32,000 bases of DNA, from the NCBI RefSeq assembly GCF_000039765.1, contig NC_004460.2, positions 960,001 to 992,000 of the forward strand, in the 5' to 3' direction. Below the pieces are notes generated by a model. It ran no database searches, was not told the origin of the DNA, and saw nothing but the letters and a program-made list of their open reading frames with translations. Shown here in pieces: positions 19,262-32,000 of this stretch (its first letter is position 1; every line of letters begins with the position of its first letter). Source of the stretch: Vibrio vulnificus CMCP6 (lineage in GTDB: Bacteria; Pseudomonadota; Gammaproteobacteria; Enterobacterales; Vibrionaceae). The translations under genes and the position numbers were made by a program.

Positions 19262-19280
19262 GTACAGTTCTGTGAGGAGC

Positions 19281-19304
19281 GAGTTAGAGGGAAGGCTCTA
19301 ACTC
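19281..19304 (+). terminator. hairpin downstream of the DMT gene (possible terminator; marks the left edge of the low-GC islet)
   Basis: A 9-bp stem gagttagag / ctctaactc with a 6-nt loop, followed by gttgtt (a weak U-tract). Confidence 0.45.
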
Positions 19305-19558
19305 GTTGTTGGACATTTTTAATTTGACACCGACGGACTAACTTTCACCCTATTAATAACTTTTAGTATCCAAAAGCACAATCAGGTACTGTTTATCACT
19401 GTTCCTGAGATTCAAAGAAATGGACAAAAACTTCCATCTTCAACCAGTTGTGTTAGATTCATATTATGCACTTTTTCAGCATAACATGCAGATCATCCTT
19501 AGAAATACTTGTCCCCTGAAGTAAATTTCAACTCAAATCGAAACTTATAAATAAATCA

Positions 19559-22174
19559 TTAAAAAACCTCTAAGATTTTCTTATAAGTCTCGTGTGTGAC
19601 AATACTACGGCCTTCAGACAAGAGAAAGTTCTTCAGAACGTCGTAAGCTAGCGGATTATTGCCAATTTCTCTGGCCAATTGCTCAGGTATTATTCCTTTT
19701 GAATCTTCAATTTTTAGTAGCCCAGGTTTCTTTTCAATTAATAGTTCAATTATAGGCAGATCACCCATGCGAATAGCCGTATGTAACGCTGTTTCACCTT
19801 CTTCGTTAATTAACGTCGCATCACAACCATGCTCTAGTATGAGATAAGCTGATTTTAAGCATCGACTAGCTGCTGCTGCATGTAGGGCGGTTCTACCCGT
19901 GAAATCTTGAAGATTCGGATCTGCGTTTGCTTTTAGTAATGCTTCTACCGTTTGATGATCTCTGTTGTTTGCAGCTAACATCAAAGGTGTCTGGAGTTTA
20001 AAGTCAGTTATATTAACGATTTCTGGCCATAATTCGATGATTTTCCTGATGCCTGTAACCATCGCACTAAATACATTACTAACTTCATTAGCAATATCGA
20101 CTTGTACCATCTGTTTATAAGAATTTAATTTAGCACGCATTTCATAGCTCATCTTCATCATTAGCAAAATGATGCTATCTGCTTGTGGATATTTCAGTTG
20201 TTTATTTTTTAAATCTTTGTGTTTTTTAAGTACTAGCTCAATAGAATATCCATTTTTTATACACTCTGCGAAATCACGACTAAACTTTCCCATATCGCTA
20301 GAACAAGAAGAAAAAAGCGGTTGATAGTTAGGATAGCATTGATACAACTTGTCCCAAAAATACTCATGTAACTCACGCGAAACGTCATAAATATTAGATT
20401 CTACTTTCAGTCCACCCCAGTAGTACATGTCTCTAAAGTACTTTTCGTGATTATTAGGAATGAGTTTTTGGTTTGCTATAGCCAATGAGAATGCATCTCT
20501 AGCTAACAATCCTCTAAACTTTCCAAAGCTGTATTTCTTACATTCATCGATAGCCAAATTAAGATTTTTTTCTGCTTCTTTAAGCTTGTTCTGCGCAATA
20601 TAATGAAGTGCTTCATAACGTAGTATATTTGCTTTTGAAAATTTAAAATCATCACAGTTTTTCGCCTCATCTAGTAAAGCAGATACTTTTTCTTCGGTTT
20701 TTGAACCAAACTTCTTAAGGAGTAGATGAGTTTCTAGTTCAAATAATATTCGCCTCATCGACTCTGTAGGCGTGGCTTCTAAAGATTTTAACCTTTCAAC
20801 AATCATTTCACCTATATTAGGATTTGAATATTGATTCATCTGAACGATTCTAGCCCCATATACTAGCTCAAAATCATCAATATTCTGTAATTGTTTAAAT
20901 GGAGCTTTGTTTTGTTTTAGTTTATCTATTAAAACATCTCTACGCATAAGGTAATTATTTGAATAATCACCTTCTTCTTTTATAAGTTTACACATTTTTT
21001 CAAATTCATCTTGAGACGTAGGAAAGACATTATCTAATATATCCTCTTCTCCAGAACGGCTAAAAATACAATTAATTCTATCTAAAGCACTCCATGGGAT
21101 ATCGTGTTCATTGTCTGTGGTAAAAAGTCGTAATAAATCATACCTATAAAAGGAAGGAAGTTGTTCTTCAAAATACTTATTTTCCGCATGGTATCCTAAA
21201 CTTCCCTTTTGAATATGAGCTTTAAAAGTTATATTATATACGTAGTTGTAAAGTTCAACTAATTGGAGTGTTTTATTTTCATTTAAGTCAAAACATAGCT
21301 TATCGACTCCAGGTGTTAAATACTTAACTAATTGCTCATACCCCTCTTGAATAGCTCTGGCTATCAGCAACCTCATACGTATCACTTCAGAGCTTGGTGC
21401 CTGATATCGTACTTTTAGTTTCTGTACAAAATCTTGCTGCTCCGCTGCTGGGCATTCACTCCTTATTATTCGCTTTAAGTCTTCACAATCAATAGCTATT
21501 TCATGCTGTAAGTCTTCATAAGACAAACCTTTTTTTTCAATAAACTCCAGAGCCTGTTCAAATTGCGAAGACTTTTCATCAGGCTCAAAGCAGCCACAAA
21601 ATTGTATATTCACTTTATCGAGGAACAGATTATTAATACTTGATACTTCAGGAGTACTCTTGGCTTTTTTCCAATTGTAAAGGTTCTTTAACACTGTACC
21701 GTGGCCATCATGAATTTTTAGATCTTTTTCCAAATTGCTAGCAATAGATTCATGAGTTCCTTGAATTAAATCGATGAGCCAATTCAAGACTCGCGGTACA
21801 GGGAGAAGAAGCTGCTTAGGTTCAATCGTAGAGTCTACGGCAGGAAGATACCAAAACCGTCCGCCAGGCATACCCTCATCCATTTTTGATTCAATTTGCC
21901 AAAATACCGTATGTCTCGCTAGAGCTGGTATGATAACCCTGGCTAAATAATGCCAAACGATTTTTCTTTGTGACGCCTTTGAAGAATAAACATTAAGCTC
22001 GATGTTCTTATGCATCAAGTAATCGTCTGCAACATTGGAGGTCAGATCTTTTTTCGCTCTTTCATCAAGCCCTAAAGCATCCGCTATATCATCCAAAATA
22101 CTTTCCCAAGTATTAGATAAATTATCCATCGTCATCTCGACATATTTAAACTTGCTTTTCGATTTTGACGTCAT
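19559..22174 (-). CDS. large helical-repeat protein with C-terminal ankyrin repeats, function unknown
   Basis: A long uninterrupted ORF in AT-rich DNA. Ankyrin repeats lie at about 19660..19990 (TPLMLAANNRDHQTVEALLKANADPNLQD / GRTALHAAAASRCLKSAYLILEHGCDATLIN / GETALHTAIRMGDLPIIELLIEK). A TPR-like segment is KANILRYEALHYIAQNKLKEAEKNLNLAIDECKK. I see no P-loop or obvious catalytic motif. The start is uncertain: the first ATG is at 22174, but the frame stays open to a GTG at 22384. Confidence 0.8.
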   Translation of the reverse strand: MTSKSKSKFKYVEMTMDNLSNTWESILDDIADALGLDERAKKDLTSNVADDYLMHKNIELNVYSSKASQRKIVWHYLARVIIPALARHTVFWQIESKMDEGMPGGRFWYLPAVDSTIEPKQLLLPVPRVLNWLIDLIQGTHESIASNLEKDLKIHDGHGTVLKNLYNWKKAKSTPEVSSINNLFLDKVNIQFCGCFEPDEKSSQFEQALEFIEKKGLSYEDLQHEIAIDCEDLKRIIRSECPAAEQQDFVQKLKVRYQAPSSEVIRMRLLIARAIQEGYEQLVKYLTPGVDKLCFDLNENKTLQLVELYNYVYNITFKAHIQKGSLGYHAENKYFEEQLPSFYRYDLLRLFTTDNEHDIPWSALDRINCIFSRSGEEDILDNVFPTSQDEFEKMCKLIKEEGDYSNNYLMRRDVLIDKLKQNKAPFKQLQNIDDFELVYGARIVQMNQYSNPNIGEMIVERLKSLEATPTESMRRILFELETHLLLKKFGSKTEEKVSALLDEAKNCDDFKFSKANILRYEALHYIAQNKLKEAEKNLNLAIDECKKYSFGKFRGLLARDAFSLAIANQKLIPNNHEKYFRDMYYWGGLKVESNIYDVSRELHEYFWDKLYQCYPNYQPLFSSCSSDMGKFSRDFAECIKNGYSIELVLKKHKDLKNKQLKYPQADSIILLMMKMSYEMRAKLNSYKQMVQVDIANEVSNVFSAMVTGIRKIIELWPEIVNITDFKLQTPLMLAANNRDHQTVEALLKANADPNLQDFTGRTALHAAAASRCLKSAYLILEHGCDATLINEEGETALHTAIRMGDLPIIELLIEKKPGLLKIEDSKGIIPEQLAREIGNNPLAYDVLKNFLLSEGRSIVTHETYKKILEVF

Positions 22175-22290
22175 CTGACCATTAGCGCCAAGCGCTTTAG
22201 CAATCTGAAGAAGTACCGATTCGAAGGTTGGAAAAGTAGCCACTGAATGTCCTTTTATTGTTTCGTTTTCCGCTAGAAAAAGAAAATTGA

Positions 22291-22299
22291 GGGGGGGGG
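22291..22299. repeat. G9 homopolymer tract (C9 on the minus strand)
   Basis: Nine consecutive G in an otherwise AT-rich stretch, 72 nt upstream of the pVip ATG. The tract lies inside the optional N-terminal extension of the ankyrin ORF, where it is read as TCC CCC CCC CTC. Confidence 0.95.
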
Positions 22300-22371
22300 A
22301 TGTTGCTTTTCCTTTTTCTACAGAGCCGATTTTATCATACTGAAGCCATCTGAATACCTGAGAATAAAAGC

Positions 22372-23289
22372 ATGACAACAGCACAATCTAGAAAAACAAA
22401 AGAACTGGTAATCAATTGGCACATGACAGAAGTCTGCAATTACAGTTGTAAATACTGTTTTGCAAAATGGGGACGCCCCAAAGAACTCCATCGTTCAGAA
22501 CAGGCAATCGATAACTTATTGGATAAGCTAGCAGACTACTTCATCAAAGGCACTCCAGTCTTAAAAGAAAAGCTGGGGTACGAAAGTGTTCGTCTTAACT
22601 TTGCAGGAGGGGAACCAATGATGTTAGGAAATACGTTCGTTACCGCTTTGGTTCTTGCAAAACAAAAAGGATTTAAAACCTCAACCATAACTAATGGACA
22701 TTACCTAATTCATGGAAAATCACCGTTGCCGAAAGATACTTTAGACATGATTGGAATCAGCTTTGACAGTCAGTACTTAAGTACACGTATGAAAATAGGA
22801 AGAAACGATCGAAAAGGAAACTCTTTTGGCGTTAATGATTTAACACATGCTCTAGCGAGACTCACACAGTCACAAACAGGAATCAAAACAAAGATTAATA
22901 CTGTAATTAACAGTCTTAATTGGGAAGAGGATTTCACTAATTTAATTTCTAGTCTAAATCCATACAAATGGAAAGTGTTACAGGTCATGCCTTATGGTGA
23001 TAATGAACTACTAATTTCCAAAGAACAGTTCGATAATTTTGTTCATAGACATAGTGGATTAGGATTACCTATTTATTTTGAGTCTAATTCTACTATGACA
23101 GAATCATACTTAATGATTAGTCCAGAGGGTTGCTTTTACCAAAACACTGCCAATAAATCTGGGTATAAATACAGCGAATGCATTAATTCATGCGGTGTGG
23201 AAAAAGCTCTTTCTCAAATAGAGTTTAATCCAATTACGTTTGCTTCAAGATATAAAAAAACTAATATTGACATTGTAGATGTATCATAA
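22372..23289 (+). CDS. viperin-like radical-SAM enzyme (prokaryotic viperin, pVip-type)
   Basis: 305 aa. INWHMTEVCNYSCKYCF contains the CxxxCxxC cluster in the viperin context N.H.T..CNY.C.FCF. NFAGGEPM is the SAM-binding GGEP motif. ITNG, ISFDS, KINTVINSLNWEEDF and LNPYKWKVLQVM follow, and ESYLMISPEGCFYQN is at the C-terminus. These are colinear with human viperin motifs as I recall them (NFSGGEPF, VSNGS, ISCDSF, KINSVINRFNVEEDM, LNPVRWKVFQCL, DSYLILDEYMRFLN). Confidence 0.85.
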   Translation: MTTAQSRKTKELVINWHMTEVCNYSCKYCFAKWGRPKELHRSEQAIDNLLDKLADYFIKGTPVLKEKLGYESVRLNFAGGEPMMLGNTFVTALVLAKQKGFKTSTITNGHYLIHGKSPLPKDTLDMIGISFDSQYLSTRMKIGRNDRKGNSFGVNDLTHALARLTQSQTGIKTKINTVINSLNWEEDFTNLISSLNPYKWKVLQVMPYGDNELLISKEQFDNFVHRHSGLGLPIYFESNSTMTESYLMISPEGCFYQNTANKSGYKYSECINSCGVEKALSQIEFNPITFASRYKKTNIDIVDVS

Positions 23290-23374
23290 AATCTTTTAAC
23301 AAAAATGAAACAAATAAACTAGATTCCTTATTATAGGAGCTATAAATAATCACAAAATATTAGATGAGGAACAA

Positions 23375-23992
23375 GTGAATAAATTTATCGTTTTTGAAGG
23401 GTTAGATGCATGTGGGAAAACAACATTAAGCTCTATATATGCGAAAGAAATGAATACTATCGTTCATAATGCGGTAGTCCCTGAAGCTCATGATCTAAGA
23501 AAGGTCATTGACTCCTATGAGTCAAAAGAGAGTGCATTTCTATTTTTTTTGTTAAATAATTTATTGAAGAGTAACGATGTTTCGAAATTATTAAACGATG
23601 AAGATGTCATATTAGATAGATATGTATTTTCAACTTTGGCCTACCAAACAATTATGCTTGGGGAAGATATTGTCAAAAATATTTTTGACACACTTAAAAT
23701 TAATAAAAAAATACTTCTTCCAGAAGTGATAATTTTTGTTAAAGCTGATATTGAAACAATAAACAACAGAATAGAGGCCAGAGGTGGCACAGTTCAGTGG
23801 TACGGCGATGCAGTTACGCAAAATAATAGTGTTGAATCAGCATATCACAAAGTTTTTAAGTGGTTTGATATTCCAATTGTAGAGGTCGATACATCAGAAA
23901 AATATGGCCGTTCGGTAGAAGAAAATTACCTACTAATGAAAGAACAGGTCGAGCACGTTCTTTCGGGAGGGAGTAATTTTTACAGTTTCTAG
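23375..23992 (+). CDS. thymidylate-kinase-fold nucleotide (NMP) kinase
   Basis: 205 aa with GTG start and GAGGA 7 nt upstream. P-loop IVFEGLDACGKTT (Tmk: EGxxGxGKTT), the Tmk-type LDRYVFSTLAYQ (Tmk: DRhxxStxAYQ), and a LID-like NNRIEARGG. The NMP-binding region is divergent, so substrate cannot be assigned. Confidence 0.8.
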   Translation: MNKFIVFEGLDACGKTTLSSIYAKEMNTIVHNAVVPEAHDLRKVIDSYESKESAFLFFLLNNLLKSNDVSKLLNDEDVILDRYVFSTLAYQTIMLGEDIVKNIFDTLKINKKILLPEVIIFVKADIETINNRIEARGGTVQWYGDAVTQNNSVESAYHKVFKWFDIPIVEVDTSEKYGRSVEENYLLMKEQVEHVLSGGSNFYSF

Positions 23993-24355
23993 TTCAATAT
24001 CTCTCGGTGATATTGTATGAACATGCAGACGTAAATTACTGGTAAAGAAAGCCGTTTCTACTTATGTTTGGACGAAAGAGAGGACTACTGCTCCGTGATC
24101 CGAAATAAGCAAATGTAAGGTGAGATCCTGGCTAGATTGAAATGCAACTTATTGCGCAAACTCATATAGGGGCAATTTCGTGTTACATACCCCGTCAGCA
24201 CACCTTTGGACAAAGACGTACTATCACCTTTGCTAAATTAGCAATTAATGAATAAATGTAGGTATGGAAAGTAGTTAACTTTATGCCCAATATCAATGGT
24301 GCAGATCACTGATTACATTTACCTTAAACGATAATGCCTCACCTTACCCAACACA

Positions 24356-24380
24356 GGGTAGAAGAGTTTTCCATCTACCC
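24356..24380 (-). terminator. weak hairpin downstream of the 188-aa ORF
   Basis: A 7-bp stem gggtaga / tctaccc with an 11-nt loop, 14 nt after the stop. There is no good U-tract. Confidence 0.3.
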
Positions 24381-24393
24381 ATTGGCTCGCCAT

Positions 24394-24960
24394 TTATCTT
24401 GTTATCCGAATACGAGTTTCTAACGTTTCCTCGTAAATATCTTCAACATGATAAGGCTCTATCGGTTCATTAGAAATAAGCCATTCACCTATGATTAAAT
24501 CGTCTTCCGTTTTGATCGAAATACAATTGCCATCAACAAGCACAATGTTGAAGCCAAAGTCATAAATGACAACCTCTGAAGAAGGGATAAAGACTTTAAA
24601 GTTTTCTTTTACTGCTTTACGACTGCGTAACCTAACGACTTCTATAAATTCTATTGCCTTAGATTCTTCGAAAAGCTTTACCTCCTCAAGTTGCCCTGCC
24701 TTAACGTCTTTTGGGTTCAATTCATGAATAAATCTTGCAATAGGCAAATGAAAGTCATGACCTTGAGGGCTGGTATACCAATCGTTGCTTAACTCAATAA
24801 AACCGGTAGGTATCTGGAAAAATAAAGAATACAGGCTCGTCACTGTATTCGATTCAAAGCTAGTGCCCTCACTGCTCGCCATCACTTTACATTTTAGCCC
24901 TATGATGGATCGCAGTGCCTGTATAGATTCACCATCCATCTGATAATTTAGCGTTTCCAT
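24394..24960 (-). CDS. hypothetical protein (islet orphan)
   Basis: 188-aa ORF with an ATG start in AT-rich DNA, where long ORFs are unlikely by chance. No signal peptide, TM segment or motif that I recognise. Confidence 0.55.
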   Translation of the reverse strand: METLNYQMDGESIQALRSIIGLKCKVMASSEGTSFESNTVTSLYSLFFQIPTGFIELSNDWYTSPQGHDFHLPIARFIHELNPKDVKAGQLEEVKLFEESKAIEFIEVVRLRSRKAVKENFKVFIPSSEVVIYDFGFNIVLVDGNCISIKTEDDLIIGEWLISNEPIEPYHVEDIYEETLETRIRITR

Positions 24961-25237
24961 TCTCTACCGCCCTAACTCTGGCTAACACGATTAATTAATG
25001 TAAATTTAGTCCTGACTATTAACAAGCAACTTCTTCAAATCTCCTCATGGTTGGACACTTGATCTTATTATTCGTGATAGGTGATTAGAATGCGGGGTTT
25101 ATGACGCGCTTACGGTAGATCACTCTATGCCTTCAGATAACTTTTATAGGGAAAACGCACGCCCCTAGATTTTGTAGAGTATTAGCTCTGAATGATTTAG
25201 GGGCAAAAACACCTCAGAAAAACCAACTCCCCCCTCC

Positions 25238-30604: not shown

Positions 30605-31342
30605 ATGATGATAAAGAAATGGTTCAAGCGCTGGGACACCATGCCCAGCCAAGAACAGATACGCCAACAGATCGTCGTTGAATCGGCGTGGCCCGAAGCG
30701 CTGCAAAACTACCTGAATACGCCGCTCATTGCACAAGAGACGCCACTTCATCAAGTCTCGTTTCTTGCTTTGGATTTTGAAACCACTGGGCTTGACGCAA
30801 AACACGATAAAATACTGTCCATCGGTATGGTGGATTTGACGCTCGAAGGCATTAACCTCTCAAGCGCAGAAGAGATCCTGCTCAACCATGGCGCGTACAT
30901 TAAAGCCGAATCTGCGCGCATTAACGGCCTAACGCCACAGGCGCTAGAGCAAGGTTGCTCGCTAGAGCAAGGTTGCTCGCTAGAGCAAGGGATGATGCGT
31001 TTATTTGAACGTGCACAAGGCAAAGTTCTGCTCGCGCACAGCGCAATCATTGAACAAGGTTTTCTCCAAGCCTTTGCTCAACAACATTTTCAGCTTGCCA
31101 AATTGCCTTGCCACTTCGTGGATACACTGCAAATTGAAAAGCGCTTTAGCTACGCAGGGAAAAGCGGCCAACGCAGCAGTTTTCAACTTGATGATTTACG
31201 ACGTTGTTATCACTTACCCGATTACCATTCTCATTCTGCCGCCAGTGATGCCTTGGCCTGTGCGGAGTTGTTTATCGTGCAAAGCAAAAAACTCGATCTG
31301 AATAAACAACGGCAGTTAAACACGGTTTTGTGCTCCATATAA
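30605..31342 (+). CDS. DEDDh 3'-5' exonuclease (DnaQ/epsilon-like)
   Basis: The ATG immediately follows the upstream TAG (ggcTAGATGATG). ExoI is LALDFETTGLD and ExoIII is HSAASDALACAELF. The ExoII region, LLAHSAIIEQGFL, is atypical. Confidence 0.85.
   Translation: MMIKKWFKRWDTMPSQEQIRQQIVVESAWPEALQNYLNTPLIAQETPLHQVSFLALDFETTGLDAKHDKILSIGMVDLTLEGINLSSAEEILLNHGAYIKAESARINGLTPQALEQGCSLEQGCSLEQGMMRLFERAQGKVLLAHSAIIEQGFLQAFAQQHFQLAKLPCHFVDTLQIEKRFSYAGKSGQRSSFQLDDLRRCYHLPDYHSHSAASDALACAELFIVQSKKLDLNKQRQLNTVLCSI
30943..30990 (+). repeat. 18-bp in-frame tandem repeat, about 2.7 copies, inside the exonuclease gene
   Basis: gctagagcaaggttgctc appears twice (30943..30978), followed by gctagagcaagg (30979..30990). 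This encodes LEQGCS-LEQGCS-LEQG. Confidence 0.95.
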
Positions 31343-31980
31343 CGTCAAAGCCAATCACGCTGTTTATCCATGCTCGTGGGTATTAAGCACCATCTCTTGC
31401 TCTTAGAAAAAAGTCGACGGCAGCGCAAATCTGCCATTGCCTTACAGCGACCTACAACAACCAATCACTTTGGAAAGGACACACTGCAAACGTTAATTAT
31501 TCCAAGAGGTTATACCTAATGGGGGGATTAACGTTTCTAAAGGCATGATTTTTGTTTTGCCTCAAACTTAAATAACCATACAAAATGTAAGAATATATTT
31601 ATTTCCCACTTTCAGATTTAAATACCATATATGAATTACTTAATAGAGATATATTCTTATTTAACAATAATGTCGCACTGTCTATGAAAAATCACGCCAA
31701 TCACATAAAAGTTAAATTAAAACAACACTTTATAATTGCGTAAAATTTCAGAAATATATGAAACATAGATAATAAAAACAATTTAAATATCATGCATTTG
31801 AAATGTAAAGACACTCTCATAAAATAGGTTTCATACTCTGTTTTATTGAAAATGTGCACTGGCTCGACTTAATTAACTTCAATACATGAATGCGAAATAA
31901 ATAATGATTCATGTCAAAAATGATTTTGCCATCGGCCTCTAATAATAAATCAGTCAAAAAGGATTTATTATGGAGAAACC

Positions 31981-32000
31981 ATGAGCCAACACGAATCATC
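31981..32000 (+). CDS. possible start of a CDS running off the window (MSQHES...)
   Basis: An ATG at 31981 is preceded by GGAGAA 4 nt upstream. Only 20 nt are visible, so no product can be called. Confidence 0.25.

Follow-up and report, generated by a model that had tools for sequence, protein, structure and literature searches.

The window, i.e. the whole stretch of 32,000 nucleotides that was analysed, carries an open reading frame for a radical-SAM protein on the forward strand (22372..23289). It raises the question whether this protein is a genuine prokaryotic viperin (pVip), that is, a radical-SAM NTP 3'-dehydratase or ddhNTP synthase, and whether the adjacent genes form a system with it. 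Viperins cleave SAM to a 5'-deoxyadenosyl radical, which abstracts H4' from an NTP; loss of the 3'-OH then yields a ddhNTP, by which the viral polymerase is chain-terminated. The primary paper on pVips is reportedly that of Bernheim et al. in Nature in 2021. From the sequence comparisons and structure models described below, we consider it very likely that the locus encodes a functional pVip, with a kinase that would supply its substrate and a large ankyrin-repeat protein as its presumed partner; the three genes form a mobile cassette in a strain-variable V. vulnificus defence hotspot.

Family identity and catalytic residues of the viperin

The open reading frame has an ATG start and encodes 305 residues. 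A sequence-only reading of the window had claimed a set of viperin motifs for it, and all seven of these could be identified in the intact 305-residue translation (INWHMTEVCNYSCKYCF, NFAGGEPM, ITNG, ISFDS, KINTVINSLNWEEDF, LNPYKWKVLQVM and ESYLMISPEGCFYQN). That reading had also set the protein apart from MoaA, PqqE and SPASM enzymes, and had named profile searches and structural comparison as the means of checking this; both kinds of search bear it out. The best profiles are viperin families. The NCBIfam equivalog NF038283 (viperin_w_prok) is matched with 327.7 bits (E-value 4.9e-98) over its complete length (positions 1–281 of 281), above its curated cutoff of 180 bits. In PADLOC, the model for pVips "associated with kinases" (PDLC02904) is matched with an E-value of 9e-127, and the model for pVips "not associated with kinases" with 1.4e-96. 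The second NCBIfam match is to animal viperin (TIGR04278), with 96.5 bits and under the cutoff of 450. Pfam recognizes only the generic Radical_SAM domain, with no SPASM match, and all nine matches below 1e-18 in a sequence search of the PDB are viperins or viperin-like proteins.

An AlphaFold2 model, based on an alignment of 39 homologs down to 47% identity, has a pLDDT of 86.1 and a pTM of 0.86. When this model was compared with the PDB by Foldseek, ranks 1 to 30 were all occupied by viperins or viperin-like proteins (E-values of 6e-21 to 6e-14, TM-scores of 0.73–0.78 on the target). Other radical-SAM folds, namely CteB (a sactipeptide maturase), BlsE, anSME, SuiB, PqqE and MoaA, follow from rank 31 with E-values of 1e-10 to 1e-8, MoaA (1tv7) being found at rank 44 with 4.7e-9. 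The E-value gap between viperins and the other folds is at least three orders of magnitude.

The presence of these folds in the list is one of two points in favour of the alternative that the protein is a non-viperin radical-SAM enzyme (a MoaA-like GTP cyclase, PqqE or a SPASM/twitch peptide maturase) with only generic likeness to viperins. The other is a series of weak, sub-threshold HMM matches to the MoaA, anSME and SPASM families, as expected of any radical-SAM core. MoaA (TIGR02666) scores 44.4 bits where 284 are required, and all SPASM maturase families in NCBIfam remain far under their respective cutoffs; judged by these scores, such matches are generic radical-SAM noise. The only cysteines that are invariant among the 39 homologs are C22, C26 and C29, and no conserved C-terminal cysteines could be identified among these homologs for a SPASM/twitch auxiliary cluster or for the second [4Fe-4S] cluster of MoaA. 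Since the sole invariant cysteines are the three cluster ligands, pVip has no auxiliary cluster. The viperin-specific C-terminal region, including Y246 and N258, is conserved as well. Profiles, conserved-cysteine pattern and structure search, with the E-value gap mentioned above, refute the non-viperin alternative, to which we attach next to no probability.

The residues of pVip were placed on mouse viperin numbering via a HMMER alignment. The motif C22-x3-C26-x2-C29, which is the radical-SAM CxxxCxxC motif for the [4Fe-4S] cluster and is invariant in the 39 homologs, corresponds to C84/C88/C91 of the mouse enzyme, and residues G79, G80, E81 and P82 form the GGEP motif for SAM binding, which is also invariant across the homologs. 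The residues that reportedly bind the NTP in mouse viperin (structure 6Q2P) are N77, H79, K120, R194, K220, N222, R245, K247 and Y302. Their equivalents in pVip are N15, H17, R74, R144, K174, N176, K199, K201 and Y246, respectively, which are all identical or conservative, and most of which are invariant in homologs down to 47% identity. Alignment and predicted model together show that all residues needed for ddhNTP chemistry are present and that the fold matches. On this combination of sequence and modelled structure, the open reading frame at 22372..23289 is a genuine bacterial viperin.

This identification is already known: the protein has been annotated, the family has been experimentally characterised, and all three genes of the cassette are detected by PADLOC. 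The exact 305-residue sequence is annotated in NCBI as an antiviral enzyme of the viperin family (AAO07825.2, AMG10130.1 and others), and its UniRef name is "S-adenosylmethionine-dependent nucleotide dehydratase". Its 90% cluster has 198 members, from V. vulnificus, V. parahaemolyticus, V. fluvialis and Photobacterium. Records of the identical protein come from 56 contigs of V. vulnificus, and judging by this recurrence the gene is intact and under selection. The Vibrio-like chromosome of the earlier reading can accordingly be given a species name, as the exact protein is from V. vulnificus and the flanks of the window are 98.9% identical to BA000038.2 (locus L014), which we take to be chromosome II of V. 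vulnificus YJ016.

The nucleotide pocket and the gene following pVip

Three types of viperin pocket have been defined (Shomar et al., bioRxiv 10.1101/2023.09.13.557418). The CTP-selective pocket is characterized by Cys314 and Lys319 of the mouse enzyme, and the UTP-selective pocket by Arg257 of Trichoderma virens. The third pocket, typical of prokaryotes, has a conserved Asn at the position of Cys314, and has been linked to promiscuous output of ddhCTP, ddhUTP and ddhGTP (same source). In the pVip of the window, Asn258 in the beta-8 loop aligns with mouse Cys314, and Ser263 with mouse Lys319; in the homolog alignment Asn258 is invariant in the clade. With these residues at the two mouse positions, pVip falls into the class with an Asn pocket, which predicts a potentially promiscuous enzyme rather than a CTP- or UTP-selective one. 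The substrate had earlier been called unreadable from the sequence. This stands for the actual product, which the sequence does not fix, and is to be revised for the pocket class, which can be read from Asn258 and Ser263.

A gene for VakA, a viperin-associated nucleotide kinase of the thymidylate-kinase family (23375..23992, forward strand), starts 85 bp past the stop codon of pVip on the same strand. It has a GTG start after a GAGGA ribosome-binding site and encodes 205 residues, in which a P-loop (GLDACGKT) and a DRY motif can be recognized. The PADLOC model for VakA is matched with an E-value of 5.7e-73 and the Pfam domain Thymidylate_kin with 1e-15, and the best PDB matches are thymidylate kinases. 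The equivalog model for the housekeeping dTMP kinase (TIGR00041) gives 78.9 bits, just under its cutoff of 83.25. Viperin-associated kinases have been linked to CMPK2 (Shomar et al. 2023, bioRxiv 10.1101/2023.09.13.557418), and a thymidylate-kinase-family neighbour is consistent with substrate supply in the style of CMPK2; the kinase does not fix the base.

The gene that follows pVip is modular. A VakA kinase is found at this place in the window and in loci L001 and L002. In other loci the slot is taken by a protein of 116–118 residues (L003:8464-8817(-), L004:8724-9077(-), L024:6928-7284(+), L026:6963-7319(+) and L027:6951-7301(+)), designated 'WHL' here, with six invariant cysteines, including C44xxC47 and C64xxC67, and two WHL[ST] motifs. 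This protein has no match in PADLOC and, in Pfam, only sub-threshold hints of zinc fingers. A third slot protein of 66–77 residues, which starts with the pattern MKYSxNK...GWxFxxGxKHGKLxxP, was found in more distant pVip loci (L031:3717-3920(-), L032:3688-3921(-) and L035:352-552(-)), and may resemble the HicA/YcfA-like small proteins. No relevant paper on VakA or on the small slot proteins was found in the searchable literature.

A mobile cassette in a strain-variable hotspot

The genes for the ankyrin protein, pVip and the kinase lie together in a cassette of 4.9 kb (19277..24198, GC 0.31–0.39). It is part of a low-GC stretch from about 19.3 to 25.2 kb, with a GC content of 0.31–0.39 compared to about 0.48 in the flanks. 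BLAST comparison with fetched loci revealed copies of the cassette at a second chromosomal site, between FapA and DUF1456 genes, with 99.8–99.9% identity over 4911–4923 bp (loci L005-L007 and L009-L013, matching the window from 19277 to 24186 or 24198). Since a cassette of such identity is found at a completely different site, the three genes have moved as a unit. In two of the second-site loci (L006 and L011, 9996-10973, forward strand), a gene for a 325-residue rve-family transposase directly follows the kinase gene, and this is probably an IS element. The occurrence of this transposase coincides with a match that is 12 bp longer at the right end of the cassette.

No megablast match for the cassette was found among the plasmids of PLSDB, and no tblastn match for pVip among the phages of INPHARED. 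Convincing terminal repeats bounding the cassette could not be identified, the only structure at its left junction being a stem-loop. This stem-loop (CGAGTTAGAG-GGAAGG-CTCTAACTCG, followed by TTGTTGGACA; window 19280-19305) marks the left boundary of the cargo. Strains that carry other cargo at the same site have retained it, and a version with another loop is present at the cassette's left end in the FapA/DUF1456 site; the cargo of L017 starts with another GCGAGTTAGAGG copy. The stem-loop may represent a recombination hotspot or a REP-like element.

The insertion site in the window, between the genes for an EamA transporter and an RpiB-like protein (19316..25196), is variable among strains. 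Both flanking genes are 96-99% conserved in loci L014-L023, and the interior has been exchanged for other cargo, i.e. a 1022-residue protein with Metallophos and nSTAND_NTPase4 domains (L020), a ResIII/DEAD helicase with a 486-residue protein and a Lactamase_B protein (L022), or various unannotated open reading frames (L016-L019 and L023). The alternative cargo looks defence-related, and at the sequence level the site shows the pattern expected of a defence hotspot, or of a variable one, on chromosome II of V. vulnificus. Besides the cassette, it contains an orphan open reading frame of 188 residues (24394..24960, reverse strand), located between the cassette and the RpiB-like gene. This orphan has no match in Pfam, NCBIfam, PADLOC or PHROGs, its cluster has 5 members, of which the named ones are all from V. 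vulnificus, and it is absent from the second insertion site of the cassette. Because it lies outside the mobile cassette, we leave it out of the system. Towards the end of the window (31000-32000), the GC content goes down to 0.36, which possibly marks the boundary of a further acquired region.

A predicted role of pVip in phage resistance is supported by this context, i.e. by the mobility and low GC content of the cassette and by its location in a hotspot that varies among strains. A different role would be the production of ddh- or related modified nucleotides for a non-immune use, such as nucleoside-antibiotic biosynthesis or signalling, since secondary metabolism could in principle draw on radical-SAM nucleotide dehydratases, and a neighbouring kinase would fit into a small pathway. 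However, the cassette contains no genes for biosynthetic tailoring, export or resistance, the alternative cargos of the hotspot are defence-like (the nSTAND NTPase and the helicase trio), and relatives adjoin RM, GmrSD, McrBC and toxin-antitoxin genes, all of which makes a non-immune use highly improbable.

The divergent partner and the proposed system

Transcribed divergently from pVip is a gene on the reverse strand (19559..22243) for a large all-alpha protein of 894 residues, with some three to four ankyrin repeats at the C-terminus. Its GTG start at 22243 has an AAGGA sequence 6 nt upstream, and both its relatives and the called genes all have 894 residues. The protein matches the PADLOC model PDLC02908, 'Ankyrin', end to end with 1312 bits, and the only Pfam matches are ankyrin repeats (residues 787–887 of the 941-residue open reading frame). 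The AlphaFold2 model (pLDDT 80.9, pTM 0.71) is entirely helical, and in a Foldseek search of the PDB only the C-terminal tail is matched, by DARPins and ankyrins, with TM-scores on the query of at most 0.17. For residues 1–740, no recognisable fold or motif was found with Foldseek against the PDB or with the profile libraries.

In a word-indexed search the partner family looks small, with about 50 clusters that derive from Vibrionaceae and from marine metagenomes. A full phmmer scan in which residues 1–741 served as the query retrieves 226 representative clusters, 110 of them at E-values of 1e-30 or lower. The family falls into two length classes, of about 900 residues with ankyrin repeats and of about 650 residues without, and both are covered by the PADLOC 'Ankyrin' model. 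Because the shorter members lack the repeats, the name of this model fits an accessory tail only. By its sequence and its predicted structure, the core of the partner is an all-helical module of about 650 residues of no recognised fold, to which the ankyrin tail is an optional extension.

The two divergent genes are separated by 128 bp (22244..22371), where their promoters are presumed to lie; no strong sigma-70 consensus and no convincing promoter could be identified within this region. It contains a G9 tract (22291-22299), which is G9 in all nine near-identical copies and G8 in L001, a 95%-identical relative. Phase variation at this tract was considered and ruled out: nine independent assemblies agree in its length, so that the tract is not a phase-variation switch.

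Gene contexts were sampled in the Vibrio genomes L001-L004, the metagenomic locus L027 and five distant representatives at 24-34% identity. In all ten distinct loci that were sampled (L001-L004, L027, L031, L032/33, L034, L035 and L028-30), the partner divergently adjoins a radical-SAM gene of about 300 residues, at partner identities of 24-93% and in unrelated contexts. The radical-SAM neighbours in the distant loci score as pVip in PADLOC, with E-values of 1e-86 to 1e-100. An apparent exception to the pairing, P0215, was dismissed, as the pVip N-terminus is present there and is cut by the contig end. Members of the same pVip clade that have no such partner occur in V. splendidus (L026) and in Shewanella, where they lie next to smpB on an island with an integrase (L024/25). 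The possibility that a 723-residue protein upstream of the V. splendidus pVip is a diverged homolog of the partner was considered and rejected (BLASTP E-value of at least 0.71).

These loci (L024-L026), which have neither the ankyrin protein nor the kinase, favour the view that pVip acts by itself, with the kinase and the ankyrin protein as independent, hitch-hiking neighbours, i.e. separate defence or metabolic genes. The position of the ankyrin gene on the opposite strand, which implies a separate transcript, points in the same direction, as do published tests in which pVips expressed alone reportedly protected E. coli. Because of such stand-alone protection and of the same-clade pVips that lack the partner, the partner is not universally required. 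In contrast, the preservation of the divergent pair in ten out of ten distinct loci over such a range of identities and contexts, the viperin-associated model names given by PADLOC to both neighbours, and the joint transfer of the three genes as a block of 99.8-99.9% identity all argue for a functional connection, and we regard the independence of the neighbours as unlikely.

In the system of pVip, kinase and partner that we favour, the [4Fe-4S] cluster of pVip, bound to C22, C26 and C29, would reductively cleave SAM to generate a 5'-deoxyadenosyl radical. This radical would take H4' from a ribonucleoside triphosphate, with loss of the 3'-OH and formation of a 3'-deoxy-3',4'-didehydro-NTP (ddhNTP), and incorporation of the latter by the phage RNA polymerase would give a transcript that cannot be extended, so that phage transcription would be aborted. 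The co-transcribed VakA probably phosphorylates nucleoside monophosphates and would in this way feed pVip, comparable to CMPK2 with human viperin. The 894-residue helical/ankyrin protein would be a dedicated partner that regulates or targets pVip. We infer the roles of the kinase and of the ankyrin protein from adjacency only. Most plausibly, the partner is a regulator or a phage-sensing adaptor, with ankyrin repeats for binding of protein; because no fold or motif can be recognised in residues 1–740, such a sensory or regulatory role is a guess.

No functional description of the ankyrin partner, nor of a link between ankyrin proteins and viperins, was found in the searchable literature. The conserved linkage of the partner to pVip, together with the modular third slot, may constitute the residual novelty of this locus, to be taken as leads and not as results. 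We tentatively suggest, as a possibility of rather low probability, that the real defence unit consists of the divergent pair of pVip and the helical protein of about 650 residues (extended by ankyrin repeats in the window), with a modular third slot for a kinase, the 117-residue Cys-rich 'WHL' protein or the protein of about 70 residues, and that the helical protein is the sensor or regulator still missing from the picture, through which the detection of phage would be coupled to the synthesis of ddhNTP. If true, the role of the helical partner would be analogous to the interferon induction that controls viperin in animals. To our knowledge, the control of viperin activity in bacteria has not been described. 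A pVip-linked partner and a swapping slot would offer a concrete way of testing how ddhNTP-based immunity is regulated or provided with substrate, and the EamA/RpiB-like locus documents a hotspot with interchangeable cargo on chromosome II of V. vulnificus.

Compared to known systems, the pVip of the window shares with the prokaryotic viperins (NF038283, PDLC02904) the full-length HMM match, the radical-SAM and NTP-binding residues, the fold, an adjacent nucleotide kinase and a location in a defence island, and no difference at the family level was found. Animal viperin/RSAD2 (mouse structures 5VSL and 6Q2P; TIGR04278) is more distant, with about 26-28% identity and a TM-score of about 0.75; the CxxxCxxC, GGEP, N/H, K/R triphosphate-binding and SYL motifs all align, and both enzymes have a neighbour of the thymidylate-kinase family, the bacterial one being an analog of CMPK2. 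The bacterial protein differs from animal viperin in having no N-terminal amphipathic membrane helix, its core starting at about residue 11, in a longer insertion after the cluster-binding loop (residues ~31-70), in the replacement of the CTP-selective Cys314 and Lys319 by Asn258 and Ser263, and in its score of 96.5 bits where the animal family has a cutoff of 450. The fungal viperin-like enzymes of T. virens (7N7I and 9DGW), which prefer UTP, have the same fold and comparable scores; the assignment of pVip to the Asn class is based on the Cys314 and Lys319 positions. Finally, the 894-residue partner matches the PADLOC family PDLC02908, 'Ankyrin', from end to end, and it differs from the ~650-residue members of that family, which have no ankyrin repeats, by its ankyrin tail.
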